This document shows, piece by piece, positions 48,372 through 64,000 of a DNA stretch of 64,000 bases. Within the stretch, counting starts at the first letter, position 1. Each line of letters opens with the position of its first letter. Under the pieces are notes generated by a model, which made no database searches, was not told the origin of the DNA, and saw nothing but the letters and a program-made list of their open reading frames with translations. This DNA comes from an uncultured Desulfospira sp. (GTDB lineage Bacteria; Desulfobacterota; Desulfobacteria; Desulfobacterales; Desulfobacteraceae), in the NCBI GenBank assembly GCA_963663165.1, contig OY760175.1, positions 3,808,001 to 3,872,000 of the forward strand, given 5' to 3'. Both the position numbers and the translations under genes were made by a program.

Positions 48372-50972
48372 ATGGCAACAATAAAAACCAAAGATAAAAC
48401 AGTTCTCAGGAGTCTCGGATTAGGTGGTTTTTTCGGGGGCGGTGCCGAAGGGATGGTGGATGTTAAAAACGGCAAGATCGTCCGCGTTCGCCCCATGAGA
48501 TACGGCTGGAAATACAAAGAAGACGATGTCCGGCAGTGGACCATTACCAAAGACGGCAAATCCATTGGGCCCGGCTGGAAAAGCCTTCCCGGCCCCTTTT
48601 CCCTGGCTTACAAAAAACGGGTTTATTCCCCCAACCGGATCCTGTTCCCCCTAAAACGGGTGGACTGGGACCCCAACGGCGAACGCAACACCCAGAACCG
48701 GGGAAAAAGCAAATATAAACGGATTTCCTGGGATGAGGCCTCAGATCTGATTGCATCTGAAATCAAACGAATTCATAAAAAATACGGGGTCCACGCCATC
48801 CTGATGCAGGGTGACGGCCATGGCGAGTGCAAGTCTATTAACACCCCCCACGGCCATCCGGGAAACCTTCTGGACCACATGGGCGGGTTTACCCTTCAGG
48901 TCCGTAACCCGGACTCCTGGGAGGGCTGGTACTGGGGGGCCAAACATGTCTGGGGCCACGGGGTCCAGGGCAACATGTGGCCGGCCGCCAATACGGTAAA
49001 AGACTGTACCGAACACTCTGAAATGGTCCTGTTCTGGGGATGTGATCCCGAGACCACGCCCTGGGGCTTTGCCGGACAGTTTGCCAGCCGGCTGTGCTAT
49101 TTCTGGGAACAACTGGGAATCAAACAGGTCTATATCTGCCCGGACTTAAACTATGGGGCTGCGGTTCATGCGGACAAGTGGATCCCCATCCTTCCCAATA
49201 CGGACGCGGCCCTGCAACTGGCCATTGCCCATGTCTGGATCACTGAAAATCTTTATGACAAGGCTTATGTGGACACCCATGTGGTGGGCATGCAGGAATT
49301 TGCCGAGTATGTTCTGGGCGAAGAGGACGGCATTGAAAAAACACCGGAATGGGCATCCAGAAAATGCGGCATCCCGGAATGGACCATCAAAGCCTTAGCC
49401 CGGGAATTTGCCCGGAAGATTACCTCTATTGCCCATTATTTCGGCGGCGGACTCATCAGGGGACCCTTTTCCCATGAAAACGCCCGTCTTGAGGTGGTTC
49501 TGCTGAGCATGCAGGGCCTTGGCGGCCCCGGGGTTCACCAGCTTCAGTTCACCTATTTTGGCATGCCCAGAAAAGAGAACCTGGCCGGCGGTATCTGGAA
49601 TCCGGATATTGAAGAACGGCTCTCCATCCCGGTCATGTCATCCATCAGCTCCTGGCAGAAACAGGCGCTTCCCAAATGCCTGGTCCATAAGGCCATCCAG
49701 GCTGAAGGGCCTATTACCTTCTGCGGGACCGGGGCCATTGAGGGGTTGACCCGGGACCAGTTCAACGAATACACCTTTCCCATCCCCAAAGAAGAAGAAG
49801 GCAGTGAGATCCACATGATGTGGACCGACACCCCCTGCCGGATCACCTGCTGGAACGGCGGCAATGAGACCGAGGTGGCGTTACGTAACCCTAAGGTTGA
49901 AACCATTGTGGCCCAGCACCCCTGGCTTGAAAATGACTGCCTCTACGCGGACATTATCCTGCCGTCCAACACCTCCTTTGAAGTGGATGACATTGTCACC
50001 AACGTGCGCCAGGGAACGCCCCAGCCCAATATCATGATCCAGGACAAGGCCATTGAGCCCATCGGGGAATCCAAGAGTGACTTTGAGGTGGTGGTTGAAG
50101 TGGCCAAGAAAGTCGGCCTGGAAAAAGAGATGACCCAGGAACTGACCATTGCCGATCTGCAAAAGCGGATCTGGCATCACATGGGCGGCGAAAAGCTGCT
50201 TCCCTGGGAGCAGTTGGAAGAAAAGAAGTACTGGATGTACAATACCGCCAAAGACTGGGAAAATGATCCTCCGGGGCTGCGGCAGTTTTATGAAGACCCG
50301 GAACGGCATCGCCTGGGCACCCCCAGCGGCAAACTCGAATTTTATTCCGAGTCCCTGGCTGCCCGGTTTCCCGATGACCAGGAAAGACCGCCCATCCCCA
50401 AATGGATCGAAAAAAGCACCATGCACGACGAGCGCCTTTCCAGCAACCGCTCCAAAGTCTACCCCCTGCTGCTCATGTCCAACCACGGCCGCTGGCGGGT
50501 TCACTCCCAGTGCGACGACATTACCTGGACCAGGGAAGTGGGCACCTGCAAGGTTACCGGACCGGACGGGTACAAATACGAACCCTTATGGATGCACACC
50601 TCTGAAGCGGCAAAACGCGGCATAAAGAACGGGGACATCGTCAAAATCTTTAATGAACGGGGAATTGTTCTGGCCGGCGCCTTTGTCACGGAACGCTTAC
50701 GTCCCGGTGTTGTCTATATTGACCACGGTGCCCGTGCCGACGCCATCAAGGTCGGGGAAATTGACCGGGGCGGTGCCATCAACACCATATCCCCTGACGG
50801 CATCATCTCAAAGAACTGTGTGGGCCAGGCCACCAGCGGTTATCTGGTTCAGATCGAGAAGCTCAGCGGGCATGAGATGGAACAATGGCGCAATGATTAC
50901 CCGGATGCCTTTGAAAGGAAATATGATCCAGCCGCAGGTCTCAGGTTTGACGCATGGGTTGTAAAAGACTAA
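48372..50972 (+). CDS. Transhydroxylase-family alpha subunit, DGHGE subtype 2
   Basis: 'QGDGHGECK', 'NPDSWEGWYWG'. Confidence 0.88.
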   Translation: MATIKTKDKTVLRSLGLGGFFGGGAEGMVDVKNGKIVRVRPMRYGWKYKEDDVRQWTITKDGKSIGPGWKSLPGPFSLAYKKRVYSPNRILFPLKRVDWDPNGERNTQNRGKSKYKRISWDEASDLIASEIKRIHKKYGVHAILMQGDGHGECKSINTPHGHPGNLLDHMGGFTLQVRNPDSWEGWYWGAKHVWGHGVQGNMWPAANTVKDCTEHSEMVLFWGCDPETTPWGFAGQFASRLCYFWEQLGIKQVYICPDLNYGAAVHADKWIPILPNTDAALQLAIAHVWITENLYDKAYVDTHVVGMQEFAEYVLGEEDGIEKTPEWASRKCGIPEWTIKALAREFARKITSIAHYFGGGLIRGPFSHENARLEVVLLSMQGLGGPGVHQLQFTYFGMPRKENLAGGIWNPDIEERLSIPVMSSISSWQKQALPKCLVHKAIQAEGPITFCGTGAIEGLTRDQFNEYTFPIPKEEEGSEIHMMWTDTPCRITCWNGGNETEVALRNPKVETIVAQHPWLENDCLYADIILPSNTSFEVDDIVTNVRQGTPQPNIMIQDKAIEPIGESKSDFEVVVEVAKKVGLEKEMTQELTIADLQKRIWHHMGGEKLLPWEQLEEKKYWMYNTAKDWENDPPGLRQFYEDPERHRLGTPSGKLEFYSESLAARFPDDQERPPIPKWIEKSTMHDERLSSNRSKVYPLLLMSNHGRWRVHSQCDDITWTREVGTCKVTGPDGYKYEPLWMHTSEAAKRGIKNGDIVKIFNERGIVLAGAFVTERLRPGVVYIDHGARADAIKVGEIDRGGAINTISPDGIISKNCVGQATSGYLVQIEKLSGHEMEQWRNDYPDAFERKYDPAAGLRFDAWVVKD

Positions 50973-51026
50973 TATAGAGGCAGTCAGTGAAACAACTTAC
51001 GCCTAAGAGACAAATAAGGAGATAAA

Positions 51027-51848
51027 ATGGCCATTATAACAATTACAAAAGCCTCATACAGCAGCGGTGAACAAATTGCCGAACGTCTCTCCAAACGGTT
51101 AAAATACCCCTGGATGGGAAGACGGGAACTGTTTGCCCGTGCGTCTGAAGATTTTCATTTTCCTGAAAAAGACCTGGTCGAGGCCGTGGAAGAACCGGCC
51201 AAGATCTGGCAGCAGGACCGTGAAAAGCAGGCGGCCAACTACAATTTAATCCGGGCAACCTTTCTCAAACGGTGCAGCGAAGAAAAAGGGAATCTCGTTT
51301 ACCACGGCCATGCCGGCCCGGAATTTGTCAGACGGATTCCCCATGCCTTGCGGATACTGGTGGTCGGAGAAATGGAATACCGGATTGAACAGGCCATGAA
51401 AATAGACGGCCTGGACCGGGACAAGGCGATTGAAACCATTCACAAAAACGACAAACGGGTCACCAAATGGTCCCAGCAGATGCATACCGTCAACTGGCGG
51501 GATTTCTCCTGGTACGATATGGTCTTTCACCTTGGCCGCCTGAGCGCCGAAAGCGCGGAAGAAGCGGTGGTTGGCATCATCGAATCCGGCGGGTTTAACA
51601 TTACGGAAGAGTCTAAAAAAGCCTTTTATGATGAATATCTGGGCAGCGTTGTCTGGACCAAGCTGACCAATAATGATGAGACCAGCAGCGCCGTTATTGA
51701 GACCATTGCCGAACATGGCCGGGTTACCATTTCAGGGGTGGCGCGCTCTAAAGAGCAAAAAGAGGCCATCACGGCTTTGACCGCTTCCATCGAAGGGGTT
51801 GAAAGTGTGCAGAACAACGTCGGCATCGGCGCCATCTGGCGCTCCTAA
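51027..51848 (+). CDS. Cytidylate-kinase-like protein with C-terminal BON domain
   Basis: 'IITIT..SYSSGEQIAERL'; 'GRVTISG...GVESVQNN'. Confidence 0.75.
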   Translation: MAIITITKASYSSGEQIAERLSKRLKYPWMGRRELFARASEDFHFPEKDLVEAVEEPAKIWQQDREKQAANYNLIRATFLKRCSEEKGNLVYHGHAGPEFVRRIPHALRILVVGEMEYRIEQAMKIDGLDRDKAIETIHKNDKRVTKWSQQMHTVNWRDFSWYDMVFHLGRLSAESAEEAVVGIIESGGFNITEESKKAFYDEYLGSVVWTKLTNNDETSSAVIETIAEHGRVTISGVARSKEQKEAITALTASIEGVESVQNNVGIGAIWRS

Positions 51849-53345: not shown

Positions 53346-55931
53346 ATGCCCAGTCAAGACAAAGAGCACGAGATTGAGAAATCAATATTCAGAGGGCTTG
53401 GCTTTTGTTCAATCACCGCAGATGCCAACAGTGTCCAGGTGGACTGCAACAAAGGCAAAATCATCCGAATACGCCCCCTTCGCTATGATTTAAAATACCC
53501 GGACATCACCCCATGGGAAATCAAAGCAAAGGGAAAGAGTTTTTCCCCGTTGAAAAAATCACTGATTCCCCCCTACAGCCTGGGATACAAGAACCGGGTA
53601 TATTCCCCCAACCGGGTTCTGTTCCCCATGAAACGGGTGGACTGGGACCCCAATGGCAACCGCAATCCCCAGAACAGGGGAAAAAGCAAATACGAGCGGA
53701 TCAGCTGGGAAGACGCCATTGAGATCATGTACAACGAAATCAACCGGGTAAAAGAAACCCACGGTATGGAGGCGATCCTGTCCCAGTCCGACGGCCACGG
53801 GGAAACCAAATGCGTCCACTCGGCCCATGGCTGCCACAGACGGTTGTTAAGCCTTCTGGGCGGATACACCCTCCAGACCCGGAATACCGACTCCTGGGAA
53901 GGCTGGGTATGGGGCGCCAAACATGTCTGGGGCTGTGAGAACTTAGGCGAAATGGTACCGGTCAACAACGTTATCGAGGATGTGGCCAACAATTGTGACG
54001 CGGTCTTCTACTGGGGCTGCGACCCTGAGACCACCCCCTGGGGCTTTGACGGACAGCTGGCCAGCCGCATCTGCTACTGGTTTACCGAAGTGGGTGTTAA
54101 ATCCCTTTATGTGTGTCCGGACCTGAACTACGGGGCAGCGGTTCATTCAGACAAGTGGGTTCCCATCTACCCCAACACCGACGCCGCCCTTTACCTTGCC
54201 ATCGCTTACATGTGGATGATTGAAGGCACTTACAACAAAGAATATATCAAGACCCACGCCGTGGGATTTGACAAGTTTGAAGAATATGTCCTGGGCAAAG
54301 AAGACGGGATTGCCAAAACCCCCAAATGGGCCGCTGAAATTACCGGCATTCCCTCTTACACCATCAAGGCTTTGGCCCGGTACTGGGGAAAGAAAACCGT
54401 GTCCATTGCCATTGGCAACGGCGGCCCGGGCATCCGGGGACCCTATGCCACGGAACCTGCCCGGCTCCAGGTGCTGCTGCTGGCCATGCAGGGTCTTGGC
54501 GGCCCCGGGGTTCACCAGTTCAAAATGATCGAATGGGGCATTTACAATAAAAAGCACAATATCCCGTTGCCCCCGCCGTCCAAATATATCCCCGTACTTT
54601 TGGACGCCAACCGGGGATGGAAGTATCAGGATACCCCCCGGCAGTTTATTCCCAAAAACCGGATCCACGACGCCATCCTGAACCCGCCCATCACCTGGTA
54701 CGGCACAGGCCTGTCTCGGGACAGTGTAGAACAGCAGTTCATCCCCTACAAATATCCCCTTGACGATGCCCCGGAAGTTCACATGATCTGGACTGACTCC
54801 CCCTCATGGATGAGCTGCTGGAACGATACCAACATGCTGGTCAAAGCATTTAGAAGTGAAAAAATTGAATTTATTGTGGCCCAGCATCCATGGATTGAAA
54901 ACGACTGCCAGCTGGCCGACCTGATCCTGCCCTCGGCCACGGTCATGGAAGTTAAAGACATTGGTGTGGAAACTATGAGCGGCCAGTTCTCCTGCGTCTT
55001 TTATGAAGACCAGGCCATCCGTCTGCGGGGAGAATCCAAAAGCGATTATGAAATCGTCTGCGCCATTGCCGAGCGGTTCGGCATCCTGGATGAATACACC
55101 CAGGGCAAAAGCGTGGATGAATGGATTGAACGCGGCCATGAGACCTCAGGGGCCGGCGATGAAATCACTTTTGAAGAGCTCAAGGAAAAAGGCTACTACG
55201 TGGTTCCGCCCGACACCAGCGAACGGGGAACCAAGGCCGGAAAGTACGAATTCTATGAAGACCCGGAAAAATATCCCCTGTCAACGCCGTCGGGAAAAAT
55301 CGAGTTTTACTCAGAACGGCTGGCCACCCATTTCCCCGATGACAACGAACGTCCGCCGGTGCCCCGGTATATTGCCTCAGGCGAATCCCATCAGGAAGAC
55401 CGCTTAGGGCCCCGGGGAAAAGCGTATCCGCTGCTGGTGGTCTCCAACCACCCCAAATGGCGGGTCCACTCCCAGCATGACGACATGACCTGGCTTAGAG
55501 AAATCCATACCTGCAAGGTTAAAGGTCCGGACGGCTACCAGTACGAACCGGCCTGGCTCCACCCGGTGGAAGCTGAAAAAAGAGGCATCAAAGACGGCGA
55601 TGTTGTGATCATCCGCAATGAGCGCGGTAGTGTCATGGCCGGTGCCTGGGTTACCGAACGGCTGCGGCCGGATGTGGTTTACATTGACCATGGCGCCCGC
55701 TGGGATCCCATTGTCCCGGGCGAACTTGACCGGGGCGGTGCCATCAACACCATCACCCCCCATAACGTGACCTCAAAACATGCCGGCGGCATGGTGAGCA
55801 GCGGCTTTCTGGTTGAGGTGGAAAAAGCCGACTTGGATGAGCTGCGCAAGCAATATCCGGAAAGCTTTAACCAACCCTACCATGACGGGGCAGGACTGCA
55901 CTCACAGCGCATTATCAATGGAGGAGAGTAA
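53346..55931 (+). CDS. Transhydroxylase-family alpha subunit, DGHGE subtype 3
   Basis: 'QSDGHGETK', 'NTDSWEGWVWG'. Confidence 0.88.
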   Translation: MPSQDKEHEIEKSIFRGLGFCSITADANSVQVDCNKGKIIRIRPLRYDLKYPDITPWEIKAKGKSFSPLKKSLIPPYSLGYKNRVYSPNRVLFPMKRVDWDPNGNRNPQNRGKSKYERISWEDAIEIMYNEINRVKETHGMEAILSQSDGHGETKCVHSAHGCHRRLLSLLGGYTLQTRNTDSWEGWVWGAKHVWGCENLGEMVPVNNVIEDVANNCDAVFYWGCDPETTPWGFDGQLASRICYWFTEVGVKSLYVCPDLNYGAAVHSDKWVPIYPNTDAALYLAIAYMWMIEGTYNKEYIKTHAVGFDKFEEYVLGKEDGIAKTPKWAAEITGIPSYTIKALARYWGKKTVSIAIGNGGPGIRGPYATEPARLQVLLLAMQGLGGPGVHQFKMIEWGIYNKKHNIPLPPPSKYIPVLLDANRGWKYQDTPRQFIPKNRIHDAILNPPITWYGTGLSRDSVEQQFIPYKYPLDDAPEVHMIWTDSPSWMSCWNDTNMLVKAFRSEKIEFIVAQHPWIENDCQLADLILPSATVMEVKDIGVETMSGQFSCVFYEDQAIRLRGESKSDYEIVCAIAERFGILDEYTQGKSVDEWIERGHETSGAGDEITFEELKEKGYYVVPPDTSERGTKAGKYEFYEDPEKYPLSTPSGKIEFYSERLATHFPDDNERPPVPRYIASGESHQEDRLGPRGKAYPLLVVSNHPKWRVHSQHDDMTWLREIHTCKVKGPDGYQYEPAWLHPVEAEKRGIKDGDVVIIRNERGSVMAGAWVTERLRPDVVYIDHGARWDPIVPGELDRGGAINTITPHNVTSKHAGGMVSSGFLVEVEKADLDELRKQYPESFNQPYHDGAGLHSQRIINGGE

Positions 55932-55933
55932 CT

Positions 55934-56758
55934 ATGGCGAAAGTATTAATCTTTGATGTAAATAAGTGCAACGGCTGTCATAACTGCCAGATCGCCTGCA
56001 AGGATGAACACTGCGGCAATGACTGGCAGCCCATAGCCGCCCCGCAACCGCTGACCGGCCAGTTCTGGTGTAAAATCCATGATAAGGTAAGGGGCCAGGT
56101 GCCCAAGGTCAAAGTGGCCTATACCCTGAACATCTGCCGGCATTGCGACGATGCGCCGTGTATCGGTGCCTGCGCTGATGAAGCCATCTACAAACGGTAT
56201 GACGGCATTGTCATCATCGATCCCACCAAATGCACGGGTTGCCACTCCTGCTTAAAAGCCTGTCCTTACGACGATGTGATCTACTACAACGACACCCTGA
56301 ACATTGCCCAGAAATGCACCCTGTGTGCCCATCTGCTGGACCAGGGTGAAAAAGAGCCCCGTTGTGTAGAGGTCTGTCCCACGGACGCCCTTGTTTTTGC
56401 CGAGGAGAGCGAGGCCAAAGATCTGTTAAAAGATGCCGAAGAACTTCAGGGTTCTTTTAATACCAAACCCCGGGTCCACTACCGCAACCTTCCCAAACGG
56501 TTTATTGCCGGCCTGATCTATGATCCGGACAAGGATGAGATCGTTGAAGGGGCATCGGTAACCGTGACGGCCTCGGACAACAGTGAAGTGGTCACCCTTT
56601 CCACCGATGAATTCGGCGATTTCATGAAAGACAGCCTTGAGAAAGGTGTTTACACCCTGACCATTGCCAAAGAGGGATACAACAGCCGGACCATTGAAGC
56701 CGATGTGGTTGACAAAGACATAAACGTAGGGGATATCCCCCTTTATGCGAACAAGTAA
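55934..56758 (+). CDS. BthL-like Fe-S beta subunit (4x[4Fe-4S])
   Basis: 'CTGCHSCLKACPY', 'TDEFGDF'. Confidence 0.88.
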   Translation: MAKVLIFDVNKCNGCHNCQIACKDEHCGNDWQPIAAPQPLTGQFWCKIHDKVRGQVPKVKVAYTLNICRHCDDAPCIGACADEAIYKRYDGIVIIDPTKCTGCHSCLKACPYDDVIYYNDTLNIAQKCTLCAHLLDQGEKEPRCVEVCPTDALVFAEESEAKDLLKDAEELQGSFNTKPRVHYRNLPKRFIAGLIYDPDKDEIVEGASVTVTASDNSEVVTLSTDEFGDFMKDSLEKGVYTLTIAKEGYNSRTIEADVVDKDINVGDIPLYANK

Positions 56759-57802: not shown

Positions 57803-57952
57803 ACACCTTCACCTGAATGGAACCGGTCACGATCAACCGGAACCGCATGAAACTTAATTTTTTAGAACCCGTAAAGCGCATAGAGGATCTCTTCCTTTAT
57901 GCGCTTTATGGTTTTAATTCAAAGGCACAAAAAACGTTCCCACCCTGGCTAT

Positions 57953-59491
57953 CCCTACAACGTGACTTATATTTAATATTATTATTTTAGTTAACATAAT
58001 CTGCTATACTCCGCAATATAACTTTTATATAGGAGGTAGAGTATGTTGCCTGAAATCCGAAAAGATGAGTACCTTTATCCTATCCCCAAATTTGATATCT
58101 GTGAAGGGGATGTAAAAAATTTTTTCAATGAACTTAAAGGGTTTCATGAAATTTTCCACGACTGTTTTCATCGTTCTGAGTCAAGGGAACATTTTTTCAG
58201 GTATATGGCTGGGCAATTTAGTGACCTGGAAAGAAAATCAATTGAACCCATTGCTCTGGCCGTTGAAGATGGCAATGTTAGGGCAATGCAGCGTTTTATT
58301 AGCGATGCTGAATGGAATGGCGCCAATATTATGGCCAAGTATCGTAATCTCATAAATGAAGATATGGGGACACCTGATGGCGTTCTTATTTTTGATGAAA
58401 GCGGTTTTGTTAAAAAAGGCAATGAATCCATCGGTGTTGCCAGACAATATTGCGGGAATGTCGGCAAGGTTGAAAACAGCCAAGTGGGTGTTTTTGCAGC
58501 CTATGCTTCCCCAAAGGGCTACGGATTGATTGATAAACGACTGTTTATACCTGAACTATGGTTTAAAGACGATCACAAACAGGGAAGAAAAAAGTGCAAA
58601 CTGCCTGAGTCTGTTTCGTTTAAGACAAAACCGCAATTGGCTTCCGAAATGTTGAACGAACTCGCAGAAGAAGCCATCGTGCCGGTTAAGTATGTTACCG
58701 CGGATTCATTGTATGGCAACAGTGATGATTTTATTGAAGCTGTTGAGCAACATCCGGATTTGACCTATTTTGTAGAAGTTCCTTGTAATACTCAATGCTG
58801 GTTTAACAGACCTATTACCGTTGAAAAAACTTACAAATACAAAGGAGAGCAGCGTACAAAAATAGTTGTTGAAAAATCCTCCAAAAAGCCGGTCGATGTC
58901 AAAACTATCGCAAAAAATATAAATGATTTTTTCTGGTACCGCCGGAAAGTATCTGAAGGTACCAAAGGACCTATTGAATATGAATTTACCAAAAGACGAG
59001 TGGTACTTTCCAAAGGAAACACGCCTACAAAATCGGTGTGGCTGATCATGAGGCGAACCCTTGGGAAATCCCCGGATTATAAATTTTTCCTTAGCAATGC
59101 CGGGGTTAGTGCCAGATTAAAGCTTTTTGTATGGCTTAGTGGTATTCGTTGGGCAATTGAACAGTGTTTTGAGGAAACCAAGACTGAACTCGGCATGGAT
59201 CATTATGAGGTCCGTAAATACCCAGGCTGGAATCATCATATAATAACGTGCATGCTTGCACATTTTTTCTTGTGGCACCTGAAAATCAGGATGGGAAAAA
59301 AAAGCTCCATCTATTACAGTGTCGCAGCTTAGAATACTAATGGAGGTGGTTTTGCCATTGAGACCTTGTCATTTTCATACCGTTATACAATCGGTTTTGT
59401 ATTACCAAAGGCGCAATCACGCTGCATATCTATCGCATCGAAAAAGGAGGCTTCTTGATAGAAAGAATACACACTAAGTCACGTTGTAGGG
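57953..59491 (+). mobile_element. IS701-family insertion sequence
   Basis: Perfect 17-bp TIR ccctacaacgtgactta; 4-bp TSD ctat. Confidence 0.92.
58043..59477 (+). CDS. IS701 transposase (frame-0 stop at 59332; +1-frame tail to 59477)
   Basis: 'DESGFVKKG..S.GVARQYCG..GK.EN.Q', 'RWAIEQCFEE.K.ELG.DHYEVR'. Confidence 0.9.
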
Positions 59492-59681
59492 CTATAATGG
59501 CTTAGTGAATTTTATGTTCTATAAAATTGATTTTTGACCGCTAAATTCAGATACAACATATAGCGGTTGGTCGATTTATGAAAAAAACCGGAGTTTTAGG
59601 ACTTGGAAAATTCGTAGAATTTACCACCCTGTCTTTTGATCGAATTACCACCCGCCTGGTGAATGAACTCCAAAGATAGAA

Positions 59682-59712: not shown

Positions 59713-59893
59713 ATAATGTCACTGGATTAAAATGGTATATTAAATCACGGTCACATGAGAATGGTCACAAAAAATCATGGAAAAATTGAAGATAATTTGC
59801 AAGATATGTCAGGTTTGAGGCAGAAGTTCCCCTGTTTATCTCGCAAATAATCGTGAAACTCCTGCCTCCCCACCCAATAACAGGGCAGGAGAT

Positions 59894-60481
59894 ATGCTAT
59901 CAGAAGTTCTGAAAAACGAAAGTTTTTTTTGGGATCTATACAAAATAGATCTGGCAACAGCCGAACGTTATAGACAGATGAAGTGCCCCCACTGCCAGGG
60001 ACCGTTGTATTATGCCAATTATCCGCGCAAACCCAGGGGGGAGCCTGAAGGGTTGTCTGAAGAATGTTTTTTACAATTCAGTTTATGTTGCGGAAGGGAA
60101 GGCTGTCGACGTCGTTTGATCCCGCCAACCTGCCGTTTCCTTGGTAAAAACATTTACTGGTATGCGGCCATTCTGACGATTGTGTCCGACTGGCAGAACC
60201 AATCTGTAGGTATCACGATGTCCAGGTTTGCTGAAACAATCGGTATCTCCCGCAACACCCTTAGCCGCTGGGTCAGCTTATTCAAAGAAATATTTCCAAC
60301 AAGCTCTCAATGGAAGAAAATCCGGGGCCGAGTACCTGCAAGCGTAAAAAATGATCGTCTTCCAGCAAGTTTGGTCAACTTCTATCTGCATCAACAGGCG
60401 TCCATCAAAAAAACGTTGATCTCCTGTTTGTCATTCTTGTCTCAAGGCAGTGAAATATCACAAAAAATAAGGGCCGGGTAA
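59894..60481 (+). CDS. Zn-finger/HTH transposon accessory protein
   Basis: CPHC...CC...C; 'GISRNTLSRW'. Confidence 0.7.
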   Translation: MLSEVLKNESFFWDLYKIDLATAERYRQMKCPHCQGPLYYANYPRKPRGEPEGLSEECFLQFSLCCGREGCRRRLIPPTCRFLGKNIYWYAAILTIVSDWQNQSVGITMSRFAETIGISRNTLSRWVSLFKEIFPTSSQWKKIRGRVPASVKNDRLPASLVNFYLHQQASIKKTLISCLSFLSQGSEISQKIRAG

Positions 60482-60596
60482 TCTCACGCAGAAGATGGGC
60501 GTGGCCTTGGGCGCTCAACTGTTCTATCAAAGGGGCCGGGATTTTTATCAGCATTTCGCTGAAAATTTTAACTCAAAATTGAAAGGACCCCGGCCT

Positions 60597-62042
60597 ATGA
60601 ACAGTAAAAACCAAAGTCCGGTTGATAACTGGGCTTTGTTTCGCTTCTCAGTCGTTGGCGGTTTGCTGGCAAATCCGCCGGCCAAAGGTGAGCTGCGCAA
60701 GGAACTGGAAAAGCTTTCCTATCAGATTTACACCCATCCCATCACGAACGAATCAACGGTATTTCATTTTTCAACTATTGAAAGCTGGTATTACAAGGCA
60801 AAAAATGCCCAGGACCCCATTATTGCTTTAGGGCGGAAAGTTCGTTCTGACTATGGCGGTTCAATTGTATTCACACCTGAACTGATCCGGATGCTGGGCA
60901 GACAATACCGGACTTATCCGAACTGGAGCTACAAACTGCACGCAGATAATTTCGCAGCAGAACTCCAGGAAAAGGAGGCTTCAGTATCGGTACCATCCTA
61001 TGCCAGTGTCCGGCGGCGGATGATCGAAAGGGGGTGGACCAGGAAGCCCTCAGCAAAGAAAAAACAGACAGCGGGTATGAAAATTGCCGCAAAGCGGTTC
61101 GAAAGCCATGAAATCCGAGGATACGAAGCAGAATATGTTCACAGCCTGTGGCATCTGGATTTTCATGAAGGCAGTCTGCGGGTGGTGGATAACAACGGTA
61201 ACTGGTATACGCCCAAAGCCTTATGTATTCTTGACGACCACTCCCGCCTGTGCTGCCACATCCAATGGTATTCAGGAGAAACCACCCAGGATTTGATTCA
61301 TGGATTGACCCAGGCCTTTTTCAAAAGGGGGCTTCCCAGGGCACTGATGACGGACAACGGATCTGCCATGACCTCCCATGAGTTTTGCAACGGGCTTAAG
61401 AAAACAGGGATACTTCATGAAACGACATTGCCCTACAGCCCTTATCAAAACGGTAAGCAGGAAGCCTTTTGGGGCACCCTTGAAGGCAGATTGATGGCCA
61501 TGCTGACCCGGGTGGACCCTCTGACACTGGAATATCTCAATCACCGCAGTCAGGCTTGGGTCGAGATGGAATATAACAAAACCAGGCATAGTGACATCGG
61601 CACATCTCCTGTTCAACGCATGCTTGAAGGCAAAGATGTTTCCCGGCCGGCACCGGATGAAGAACAATTACGTTTCGCCTTTACAGTTTGCGAAGTCAGA
61701 AATCAGCGCAAGTCTGACGGTACCGTGTCCATCAACGGGGTAAGATTTGAGATCCCTTCCCGGTTTCACCATATCCCTCGGTTACATGTCTGCTTTGCCA
61801 ATTGGGATAAATCCATGGCCTGGCTCATGGACCAGAGAACCGGCAAACAGATTGCGCCGATCTACCCCCAAGACAAAATCAAAAATGCTTCAGGAAAACG
61901 AAAGATCAAGTCGAGACCTGAACATACCATTCTACCGGATGAAACATTGAAAGAATCCGAGCCTGCATTATTAAGAAAACTGATGGCCGAGTATGCCCAA
62001 AGCGGCATGCCCCCAGCCTATCTGCCCAAAGGAGAATCATGA
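60597..62042 (+). CDS. DDE transposase/integrase (rve, Mu-like C-terminus)
   Basis: 'LWHLDFH', 'DDHSR', 'TDNGS', 'PYSPYQNGKQE', 'DGTVSING.RFE'. Confidence 0.9.
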   Translation: MNSKNQSPVDNWALFRFSVVGGLLANPPAKGELRKELEKLSYQIYTHPITNESTVFHFSTIESWYYKAKNAQDPIIALGRKVRSDYGGSIVFTPELIRMLGRQYRTYPNWSYKLHADNFAAELQEKEASVSVPSYASVRRRMIERGWTRKPSAKKKQTAGMKIAAKRFESHEIRGYEAEYVHSLWHLDFHEGSLRVVDNNGNWYTPKALCILDDHSRLCCHIQWYSGETTQDLIHGLTQAFFKRGLPRALMTDNGSAMTSHEFCNGLKKTGILHETTLPYSPYQNGKQEAFWGTLEGRLMAMLTRVDPLTLEYLNHRSQAWVEMEYNKTRHSDIGTSPVQRMLEGKDVSRPAPDEEQLRFAFTVCEVRNQRKSDGTVSINGVRFEIPSRFHHIPRLHVCFANWDKSMAWLMDQRTGKQIAPIYPQDKIKNASGKRKIKSRPEHTILPDETLKESEPALLRKLMAEYAQSGMPPAYLPKGES

Positions 62043-62866
62043 ACAACAAACAGCTTCTGGCTTATTACGGCCTTAAATGGAATCCTTTTTTGTCCAATAT
62101 CCCCGTGGAGGCTTTATGGCATCCGCCATTGATGAACAGTTTTATTTTTCGTCTTGAGAATATGACCCTGAACGGGGGCTTTGCTTTGATCAGCGGGGAC
62201 CCTGGCCTTGGCAAATCCAAGGCGTTGCAGATGATTGCCCAAAAGTTCGGTAAACTTGACGAGGTAGTTGTCGGGGTAATGGAACGTCCCCAAAGCAGTG
62301 TCGGAGACTTTTACCGGGAAATGGGAGTTTTGTTTGGTGTCAATTTAAGCCCTGCCAACCGGTATGGCGGGTTCAAGGATCTTCGGGAGCGCTGGAGGCA
62401 TCATGTAAAAACCACCTTGTTCCGGCCCATCCTGCTCATAGATGAAGCCCAGGAGATGCTGACCGGATGCTTAAATGAACTGCGTTTGTTGAACAGCGCG
62501 GACTTTGACTCCCAAAACCTGTTGACCACCGTGATTTGCGGCGATGACCGGCTCCCGGAACGGTTCAGATCAAGATCCCTGGTATCGCTGGGAAGCCGGA
62601 TGCAGTTCCGGTTGACGCTGCTTCCCTATGTCCGGGATGACCTGCTGGATTACATGGATCACAGCCTGAACCAGGCCGGCGCCCCGCACTTAATGACGAA
62701 AACTCTGATCAGGACCCTTGCAGACCATTGCGCCGGCAACCTGCGGGTTCTTAACAATATGGCCGCAGACCTGCTGACTGCGGGGATTGAAAAAGAACTC
62801 AATCAATTGGACGAAAAGCTTTTTATGGAAGTCTATTCCAGACAGCCGCCCAATAAAAAATCATAG
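62039..62866 (+). CDS. ExeA/TniB-like AAA+ ATPase
   Basis: GDPGLGKS; LLIDEAQ; 'GNLRVLN'. Confidence 0.88.
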   Translation: MNNKQLLAYYGLKWNPFLSNIPVEALWHPPLMNSFIFRLENMTLNGGFALISGDPGLGKSKALQMIAQKFGKLDEVVVGVMERPQSSVGDFYREMGVLFGVNLSPANRYGGFKDLRERWRHHVKTTLFRPILLIDEAQEMLTGCLNELRLLNSADFDSQNLLTTVICGDDRLPERFRSRSLVSLGSRMQFRLTLLPYVRDDLLDYMDHSLNQAGAPHLMTKTLIRTLADHCAGNLRVLNNMAADLLTAGIEKELNQLDEKLFMEVYSRQPPNKKS

Positions 62867-62875
62867 GAGAACAAT

Positions 62876-63058
62876 ATGGGTATTTATGATGATCCGGACA
62901 TGAAACTGGAAGAAATCACACAGGAATTGGAACATTTTATCCTGGATATGGTCCTTGCCGGACTTGAAAGCTTGAATATGGAATATCGGGCCTTCAGGCG
63001 ATTCCAGAAACAAAGGCTCACGGAAAAGAACCGTCATAAAGAACACGAGCCGTTTTGA
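62876..63058 (+). CDS. Small hypothetical protein
   Basis: AGGAG SD, 60 aa, operon position. Confidence 0.5.
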   Translation: MGIYDDPDMKLEEITQELEHFILDMVLAGLESLNMEYRAFRRFQKQRLTEKNRHKEHEPF

Positions 63059-63095
63059 ACGTACGCCCGGACTCCAAAGGTCCGGGCCTGCCTCA

Positions 63096-63884
63096 ATGGA
63101 AAAAATACTTTGGAAAATCGGCAATTATTTTAAGCACCGCTTCAGCCTGGCAGTTCTTGATGAAATTAAGGGCCGGTGGCCCGTTCTCCCCTCTTGTAAA
63201 AACATCCCTTATCTTAAAGCTGAAAATGCCGGAGGAAGGCACATCCTGATCAGACCTGATCCTGTTATTCAGCCTTATTATTTTCTTGCCGACGATTTAA
63301 ACATTGACCTGCTTATCCGGCATCATCAATCCATATCAAACCGCTTTAAACCAGGCAGGATGGTTATAGAAACATCTCCCGGCAATTATCAAATTTGGAT
63401 TCACAGTGACCGTCCGTTAAGCCTTCCCGAAAAAAAGTATTGGTTGGAAAACATGCACAGTGATCCCGGCGCCGACCCGAAAAACAGGTGGGGCAGATGC
63501 CCCGGGTTCAGGAACAGAAAAGCAAAACACAGAACGCCTTCAGGACAATACCCTTTGGCAAAGCTATTATGGGTGGACTGGAAATGCCAGGCTATTGTCC
63601 CTGAAATAGAATTATCCTCCCAACCTCAAGAAGTCTTTTCCCATCAACCCCGGGGGGGAGTGTGCCATAACGGTAATATTTCCCGCTCCCTCTATGATAA
63701 GGGTGACGAATCTGCCACTGATTTTGCATATGCTCTGGCCCTCTATAGAAGAGGTTTCTCACGAATGGAAATTTACAATCGCATTATCAATGAAAGGCAG
63801 GATTGGATTAATCATGCGGGTGAACGAAAAAAAACACAGTATCTGATCAGGACATTACAGAAAGCTGAAAAAATTATCAGTTAA
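63096..63884 (+). CDS. RepB-family DNA primase (AEP)
   Basis: 'LADDL', 'IETSPGNYQIW', 'DPGAD....WGRCPGFRNRK', helical 'DESATDFAYA'. Confidence 0.8.
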   Translation: MEKILWKIGNYFKHRFSLAVLDEIKGRWPVLPSCKNIPYLKAENAGGRHILIRPDPVIQPYYFLADDLNIDLLIRHHQSISNRFKPGRMVIETSPGNYQIWIHSDRPLSLPEKKYWLENMHSDPGADPKNRWGRCPGFRNRKAKHRTPSGQYPLAKLLWVDWKCQAIVPEIELSSQPQEVFSHQPRGGVCHNGNISRSLYDKGDESATDFAYALALYRRGFSRMEIYNRIINERQDWINHAGERKKTQYLIRTLQKAEKIIS

Positions 63885-64000
63885 AATCGGGCTCTCTTGG
63901 CCTCCGGGAAAGCCCTTATTTACCATGAAACGTTGTCCATGAATTATCGTGATTGCTCTCAACATTTGCAGCTGACGGTCCTTTGGGACCCTGTTCAATG

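Follow-up and report, generated by a model that had tools for sequence, protein, structure and literature searches.

A Tn6049-like transposon with its own RepB'-type primase and an ssi-like priming site, a candidate self-priming copy-out/paste-in element

Tn6049 of Cupriavidus metallidurans CH34, described as a 3.5-kb element with 12 copies and 4-bp target duplications (PMC2864759, PMC4739549), is the closest named relative of the transposon analysed here, a 4206-bp element with TG...CA termini at positions 59756-63961 of a 64,000-nucleotide stretch (hereafter the window) of contig OY760175.1, within the one-contig 6.74-Mb genome (G000) of an uncultured Desulfospira sp. The two share gene order, with identities of 33% for orfA, 47% for the transposase and 50% for the ATPase, and both are multi-copy elements bounded by imperfect TG...CA repeats and short target duplications, which measure 5 and 6 bp in two fetched Tn6049 copies. 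In the slot of the last small open reading frame (ORF), Tn6049 has a 71-aa acidic ORF that looks unrelated to the 60-aa ORF of the Desulfospira element; nothing follows it, and Tn6049 displays neither a primase nor a match to a single-strand initiation (ssi) site, whereas the Desulfospira element continues with both and is therefore a variant of the Tn6049 kind.

The closest described counterpart of this additional module is RepB' of the IncQ plasmid RSF1010, which together with ssi sites turns single-stranded into double-stranded DNA, priming at a hairpin with GTG after it; the residue roles given in PMC8567376 comprise the catalytic D77, D78 and D134, plus R145, and D238 of the helix bundle, needed for primer initiation. 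The transposon shares with RSF1010 both primase domains, the mapped D77/D78/D134/R145 and a site comprising a 5' CTTTCCC-like run, a hairpin and GTGTG. On the other hand, RSF1010 displays an opposed ssiA/ssiB pair, whereas the element carries a single site, located within the gene, with a shorter hairpin and borne on a transposon, and genes for the RepA helicase and RepC initiator of an IncQ-type replicon are absent from it. The preferred reading, to which a probability of about 0.6 is assigned, is that this Tn6049-like DDE/ATPase transposon, with an intact RepB' primase and an ssi-like site, moves by copy-out/paste-in, the primase priming the second strand of the displaced single-stranded circle; on moving, the transposon would thus likely start its own second-strand copying instead of leaving that step to the host. 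The element comprises the following features:

59756..63961, + strand: whole element, TG...CA (11 same-ended copies in G000)
59756..59784, + strand: left terminal inverted repeat, 21/29 complementary to the right repeat
63933..63961, + strand: right terminal inverted repeat; a second TTCATGG-type repeat (subterminal) lies immediately internal to it
59753..59755, unstranded: left target duplication ACA, 3 bp (flank comparison)
63962..63964, unstranded: right target duplication ACA, 3 bp (flank comparison)
59894..60481, + strand: orfA, 195 aa, cysteine cluster (putative zinc) and helix-turn-helix (invariant cysteines; Tn6049 likeness)
60495..62042, + strand: DDE transposase, 515-aa frame (Pfam rve, E 6e-13)
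62039..62866, + strand: AAA+ ATPase, ExeA/GspA-like (Pfam AAA_22, E 1e-16)
62876..63058, + strand: 60-aa acidic ORF, part of the backbone (homologues in relatives, including the primase-less L178)
63096..63884, + strand: RepB'-type primase, 262 aa, catalytic and helix-bundle domains (PF16793, PF22448)
63635..63666, + strand: ssi-like site in the primase linker, with TTTCCC, a short C-tract/G-tract hairpin and GTGTG (synonymous conservation; IncQ likeness; kept by miniatures)

The element is real and recently mobile. G000 contains 11 copies with identical end bases: nine measure 4206 bp, one that spans the contig origin measures 4217 bp, and one, the element plus two nested multi-copy insertions, measures 10182 bp. 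All 11 copies are flanked by target duplications, taken as the longest exact match between the flanks (5, 6, 5, 3, 3, 6, 5, 6, 4, 5 and 5 bp), and the matching duplications identify them as simple insertions. Among the nine plain copies, five are identical and three others, mutually identical, lie 112 sites apart from the five, whereas the window copy is a recombinant in which 61241-62612 derives from the second sequence type; the identical copies point to recent movement. The duplication of the window copy is ACA, so the true right end is 63961 (...CTCTCA); a paralogous empty site (G000 50600-51045) displays a single ACA.

The original prediction, made from the letters of the window, had proposed a transposon of ~4.2 kb at 59756..63964 with five co-oriented ORFs, and the size, the left end, the place of the five ORFs and the imperfect inverted repeat (21/29) are all borne out, the repeats being the real ends because the 11 copies begin and stop at those bases. 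Its right end, read as ...CAACA, lies 3 bp too far, since the final ACA belongs to the target duplication, and its remark that no such duplication was found gives way to the ACA on either side and to the duplications of every other copy. The search for other copies and empty sites that it recommended yielded the 11 copies and the single-ACA site; the origin of the primase in a neighbouring plasmid or prophage, which it had named as the circumstance that would undo the proposal, is ruled out, as the gene is enclosed by the element ends in all 11 copies. Its proposal of self-priming receives strong, albeit indirect, backing from the ssi-like site, which it had not noticed.

The primase matches RepB_primase (PF16793; E 1.5e-15, 58 bits, cut-off 24.3) and RepB_primase_C (PF22448; E 1.7e-8, 34.6 bits, cut-off 26.1), as well as the structures PDB 3h20/3h25 (E about 4e-12), and it thus displays both domains of the RepB' primases (PrimPol-PV1 group). 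RSF1010 residues D77, D78, D134 and R145 correspond to D66, D67, D123 and R134, which are kept in 72/72 genes, the set left after dereplication of 93 intact, full-length sequences at 90%, and the ratio of nonsynonymous to synonymous rates (dN/dS) against four relatives is 0.11-0.17, two further pairs being saturated; residue conservation and low dN/dS together indicate that the primase is intact and under purifying selection. A protein search recovered 578 homologues among 798 candidates, the named close records belonging to Desulfospira, Desulfobacula, Desulfobacteraceae and one Bacteroidetes metagenome-assembled genome.

The ssi-like site lies where the gene encodes the interdomain linker peptide SHQPxGGVC, with the predicted start triplet GTG at 63660-63662. 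Over codons 182-190 the mean synonymous excess is 0.78 (8 scored codons) versus 0.07 for the 155 others, and values above 0.8 are found at 6/8 codons there versus 0/155 elsewhere; the GTG is kept in 97% of the 72 rows. The ssiA and ssiB sites of a fetched IncQ plasmid follow the same plan, and a 40-mer scan of both strands of the element against ssiA+ssiB places the site first, with a score of 56 against 49 for the runner-up. The site profile matches 69/72 primase genes and never on the minus strand, a count with some circularity, as the profile was itself built from 65 of those rows. Each transposon contains a single ssi, on the top strand: a second, minus-strand ssi was sought in the element and the 72 primase genes and none was found, the weak minus-strand matches at W-x-D-W-K codons being rejected as they display neither a GTG nor synonymous constraint.

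Three independent lines show that selection acts on the DNA of the site and not on the peptide: (i) the relocation of the site in locus L143, where it lies downstream of the stop codon, ahead of the right end, and the in-gene copy has decayed; (ii) the 373-bp miniatures described below; and (iii) genomes identified by a strict site pattern, together with the other miniatures, the pattern occurring in 7/401 genomes, 6 of these among the 15 that bear the primase, and in 0 with the reversed control. In the same locus (L143:3175-4881) the ATPase and primase share one reading frame, either a real fusion, a frameshift or an assembly error.

The gene-less miniatures were recognised among the 14 site-profile matches of G000, which comprise the 11 element copies and three copies of a 373-bp element with the family ends, 5-bp duplications and the ssi:

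G000:C1:2726987-2727359: 373-bp miniature, first copy
G000:C1:5266572-5266944: 373-bp miniature, second copy
G000:C1:4409221-4409593: 373-bp miniature, third copy

None of the five genes has a homologue in the 373-bp element, which at E<0.01 aligns with the full element at the two ends and the ssi only. Two further miniature families, of 407-409 bp and about 370 bp, occur in G082 and G332, with different ends and the ssi kept; the four copies checked there comprise two with a clean 4-bp duplication, one with a 5-bp duplication containing a mismatch and one with none. Three separate miniature families (370-410 bp) thus keep the site, and in G000 and G332 it occupies the same strand relative to the miniature ends.

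In the copy-out/paste-in reading, the transposase would nick the right end and attach it, on the top strand, to a point a few bases beyond the left end. The 3'-OH released in this way would be extended by host replication, displacing the top strand as a circle, on which the ssi would fold and RepB' would synthesise a primer at the GTG; a host polymerase would finish a double-stranded circle with abutted ends, and transposase and ATPase would insert this circle, resulting in the 3-6 bp duplication. This model is the simplest in view of the clean insertions (11/11), the lack of a resolvase, the single top-strand ssi and the junction found in a relative, whose contigs L074 and L075 both join a right end, 4 bp and a left end, the L075 contig being circular with a 129-bp terminal overlap. 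A copy-out circle would leave such a junction, and so would a tandem dimer.

Several observations weigh against this reading. The junction is one case, in a relative whose transposase is 49% identical, and a collapsed tandem dimer would look alike; no circle junction of the element itself was found in the contigs of the 8 public runs searched, out of 9 listed, a weak negative as contigs drop rare forms. TnsB and MuA, the closest folds to the transposase, are not known to use circles. Relatives that lack the primase, among them Tn6049, have spread without the module, so the module is not essential to the backbone. Within the primase, the residue aligned to D238, D204, is D in 45/72 and N in 21/72 genes, and the adjacent D209 is invariant, both lying in a non-significant stretch of the alignment. 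In addition, the hairpin of the site is weaker than that of IncQ (-3.0 vs -8.7 kcal/mol), and G332, a draft genome, contains a miniature and no primase match.

Joints at 59752-63962 in those runs were considered as excision products and rejected, given the 3 to 7 differences present in the longer contigs among those listed and the existence of a paralogous empty site. The circle junction displays no clear promoter match by eye, and the promoter scan of the element is at chance (8 vs 6.1).

The best-surviving alternative, considered unlikely, is that primase and ssi serve Mu-like replicative transposition, in which the displaced strand would be primed in a Shapiro intermediate after both ends are joined and no free circle would form. 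The modelled transposase lends it support, with TnsB (E 2e-18), MuA (8e-14) and IstA (1e-13) as the closest Foldseek matches, as do the pairing of DDE and AAA proteins without a detected TnsA-like nuclease and the lack of a circle junction in the eight runs; nevertheless, Pfam and NCBIfam detect no resolvase, TnsA or TniQ in the element, and cointegrates or intramolecular replicative events would shuffle flanks that match in 11/11 copies. The module is also carried by RIT elements, whose tyrosine recombinases cannot form a Shapiro intermediate, and the L075 junction argues further against it. Compared to the Mu/Tn7/Tn5053/Tn552 group, the element thus shares the TnsB/MuA-like fold, as predicted by the model, and the AAA+ partner, but lacks detectable TnsA, TniQ and resolvase and displays duplications that vary between 3 and 6 bp instead of being fixed.

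It is improbable that the module instead serves horizontal spread, priming single-stranded DNA that enters by conjugation or transformation while the element is plasmid-borne. The nearest outside primases do occur in conjugative or plasmid contexts (L054, L055, L148), and the conversion of single-stranded to double-stranded DNA by RepB' and ssi described in PMC8567376 would suit that role, but the miniatures are chromosomal and multiplied inside single genomes, with the strand of the site fixed relative to the ends (G000, G332), and one fixed strand is unneeded if the site is useful on either entering strand.

Distinctly improbable is a primase that came from a plasmid with the ssi attached and remains passive cargo, of no gain to the transposon. 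The sequences examined do show the module to be optional for the backbone: the transposase query matched 60/401 genomes whereas the primase profile matched 15/401 of the order (5/401 of the phylum, own genome counted), and the primase was seen at 4/29 fetched transposase loci, with 1.5-kb flanks only and several loci incomplete. Purifying selection on both protein and site nevertheless speaks against mere cargo, as do the conservation of the site without the gene in three miniature families, its relocation in L143 and the repeated capture of the module by unrelated backbones in the same terminal slot. The ends of 14 primase-less relatives were examined for the site, which is absent in 14/14. 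In one such relative, L165, the slot after the ATPase holds the start of an ORF that by eye resembles a RepA-type helicase.

Finally, a self-replicating mini-replicon, the circle offered in the original prediction, is highly improbable despite a primase and ssi that make up half of an IncQ origin and the circular contig L075, since a single ssi is present, neither RepC nor a helicase is matched, and the element read depth, about 9 to 12 times that of the unique flank, is in line with 11 chromosomal copies and against a high-copy free replicon.

The distribution of the primase extends beyond the transposon of the window. The 105 loci examined, a set that contains near-duplicates and to which metagenomes contributed the best 80 of 290, include 100 with a long primase match: (i) 42 with this backbone, (ii) 29 with a distant DDE/ExeA family of about 25% identity, (iii) 13 with RIT recombinase genes, (iv) one with a third DDE/AAA family, (v) one with an orfA remnant, and (vi) 14 without a backbone label. 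Primase plus site also form the last gene in the second DDE/ATPase family and in the RIT recombinase trios; in four RIT loci with both ends, a 3.9-kb element encloses the primase, the RIT ends having been located by motif and the type-B right ends by eye, as an automatic terminal-repeat search gave neither. A quickly computed tree groups 68 rows from transposon-type or unlabelled loci into one clade (SH-aLRT 98), separate from plasmid- or replicon-like primases, and on this tree the backbone label of the present type changes seven times, at least four of these changes being forced by well-supported branches. Viral contigs gave a single 24-residue match and nothing more.

These data suit a broader proposal, for and against which the scales stand about level, that a self-priming cassette comprising the RepB' primase and an ssi coded in its gene came from plasmid replicons by capture and has since been exchanged between DDE/ATPase transposons and RIT elements, freeing copy-out from the host primosome, and that the miniatures exploit it through their two ends and the ssi. 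The replicon-like locus L056 (3800-5243) combines the primase and a DUF5906 helicase-like gene with short repeats and two ssi sites in opposed orientation, an arrangement like that of IncQ, and represents a candidate kind of source for the module. A three-gene family also adjoins the primase (L117:713-3618, L083:2035-5014 and L087), comprising proteins of about 190 aa, 545-563 aa without a Pfam match, and an AAA_22 protein; the 545-563-aa product aligns weakly to a DDE core in hhalign (E 0.005).

If true, self-priming transposons would represent a functional class, the cassette would fix the copied-out strand, which the strand of the site would predict, and RIT elements would move via a single-stranded circle. 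Second-strand priming of copied-out transposons is difficult to investigate, being entrusted to host enzymes; the present element itself contains a small enzyme as well as a 30-base site that overlaps the coding sequence of a protein linker, and the two can be mutated separately, with the natural 373-bp miniature as a ready substrate. According to PMC10214605, laboratory reproduction of RIT transposition was still lacking as of 2023, so that the module would offer a handle on this group.

Among other known systems, IS21 (IstA/IstB) and further copy-out/paste-in insertion sequences (IS) share with the element the DDE plus AAA ATPase pair, TG...CA termini, variable duplications and, in a relative, the junction; however, the IS21 family score is below cut-off (NF033546, 38 of 160 bits), the ATPase matches no IstB model of Pfam or NCBIfam, and the element carries a primase. 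RefSeq labels the Tn6049 transposase homologue IS481, a family with a single transposase gene, whereas the element comprises five ORFs and scores 105 of 224 bits, below cut-off, with NF033577. The closest published idea, an archaeo-eukaryotic primase (AEP) at the copy-out step of IS, is described for the IS excision enhancer (IEE), a PrimPol-helicase (bioRxiv 2023.06.07.543989) that, as presented there, acts in trans on many IS families and promotes their loss, whereas the primase of the element is RepB'-type, internal and paired with a cis site. The strand-biased circularizing elements (SEs) described in PMC10214605 employ tyrosine recombinases and form one-strand bridges and circles; the RIT trios, likewise tyrosine recombinases, hold the same primase clade inside their ends, and the word primase is absent from the main text of that article, which covers RITs and SEs. 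Casposons and other self-synthesizing transposons share with the element a DNA synthesis gene of their own. Casposons carry a family B polymerase and Cas1, whereas this element carries a primase only. A transposon-borne RepB' or ssi was not found in the literature searched, which lay outside subscription journals, ISfinder and TnCentral; an AEP survey lists 11 RepB' members and its main text makes no mention of transposons or insertion sequences, though its supplements could differ (PMC5862659). The primase-plus-priming-site module is thus apparently undescribed.

Regarding the backbone proteins, the likely transposase start is at 60597, which gives 481 aa, and D222, D287 and E323 (515-aa numbering) are invariant in 27 rows; the ATPase contains the Walker A motif GDPGLGKS and the Walker B motif ILLIDE. 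OrfA, probably an end-binding or regulatory protein, displays invariant C31, C34, C65, C66 and C71 (23 aligned rows) and only sub-threshold helix-turn-helix matches in Pfam, whereas Foldseek returned no match to its fold at E<=0.001, the best VIA Z being 4.7. Upstream of it lies a putative leader:

59859..59891, + strand: 8-bp stem CTCCTGCC / GGCAGGAG over the likely ribosome-binding site of orfA (from sequence; similar leader in relatives; suggested function)

The slot that holds the primase in the Desulfospira element contains, in 5 of 14 primase-less relatives, a different conserved structured motif that is not in Rfam; this second structured, non-coding motif follows the ATPase, in two backbones:

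L159:468-637, - strand: second structured motif
L160:3800-3975: second structured motif
L167:2882-3024: second structured motif
L171:338-492, - strand: second structured motif
L173:3104-3271: second structured motif
G000:C1:5657298-5657451: second structured motif

The motif may represent a further single-strand origin or else an RNA, and may resemble the ssoA boxes of rolling-circle replicons. An Rfam scan of six loci gave no match at the gathering score.

With regard to the surroundings of the copies, 10/11 lie on the + strand irrespective of the replichore (GC skew is lowest near 4.0 Mb and highest near 0.76 Mb), a bias that is possibly due to chance, and their orientation displays no relation to the direction of replication (6 co-directional, 5 head-on). 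In the window, an IS701-family element (57950-59494) ends 260 bp upstream of the transposon, with seven further genome copies among the matches listed; its DDE gene (58043-59332) was considered as part of the transposon and rejected, as it belongs to this separate element. Further upstream (53346-56758), an 861-aa ORF and a 274-aa ferredoxin-like ORF, host genes, resemble by eye a molybdopterin oxidoreductase pair.

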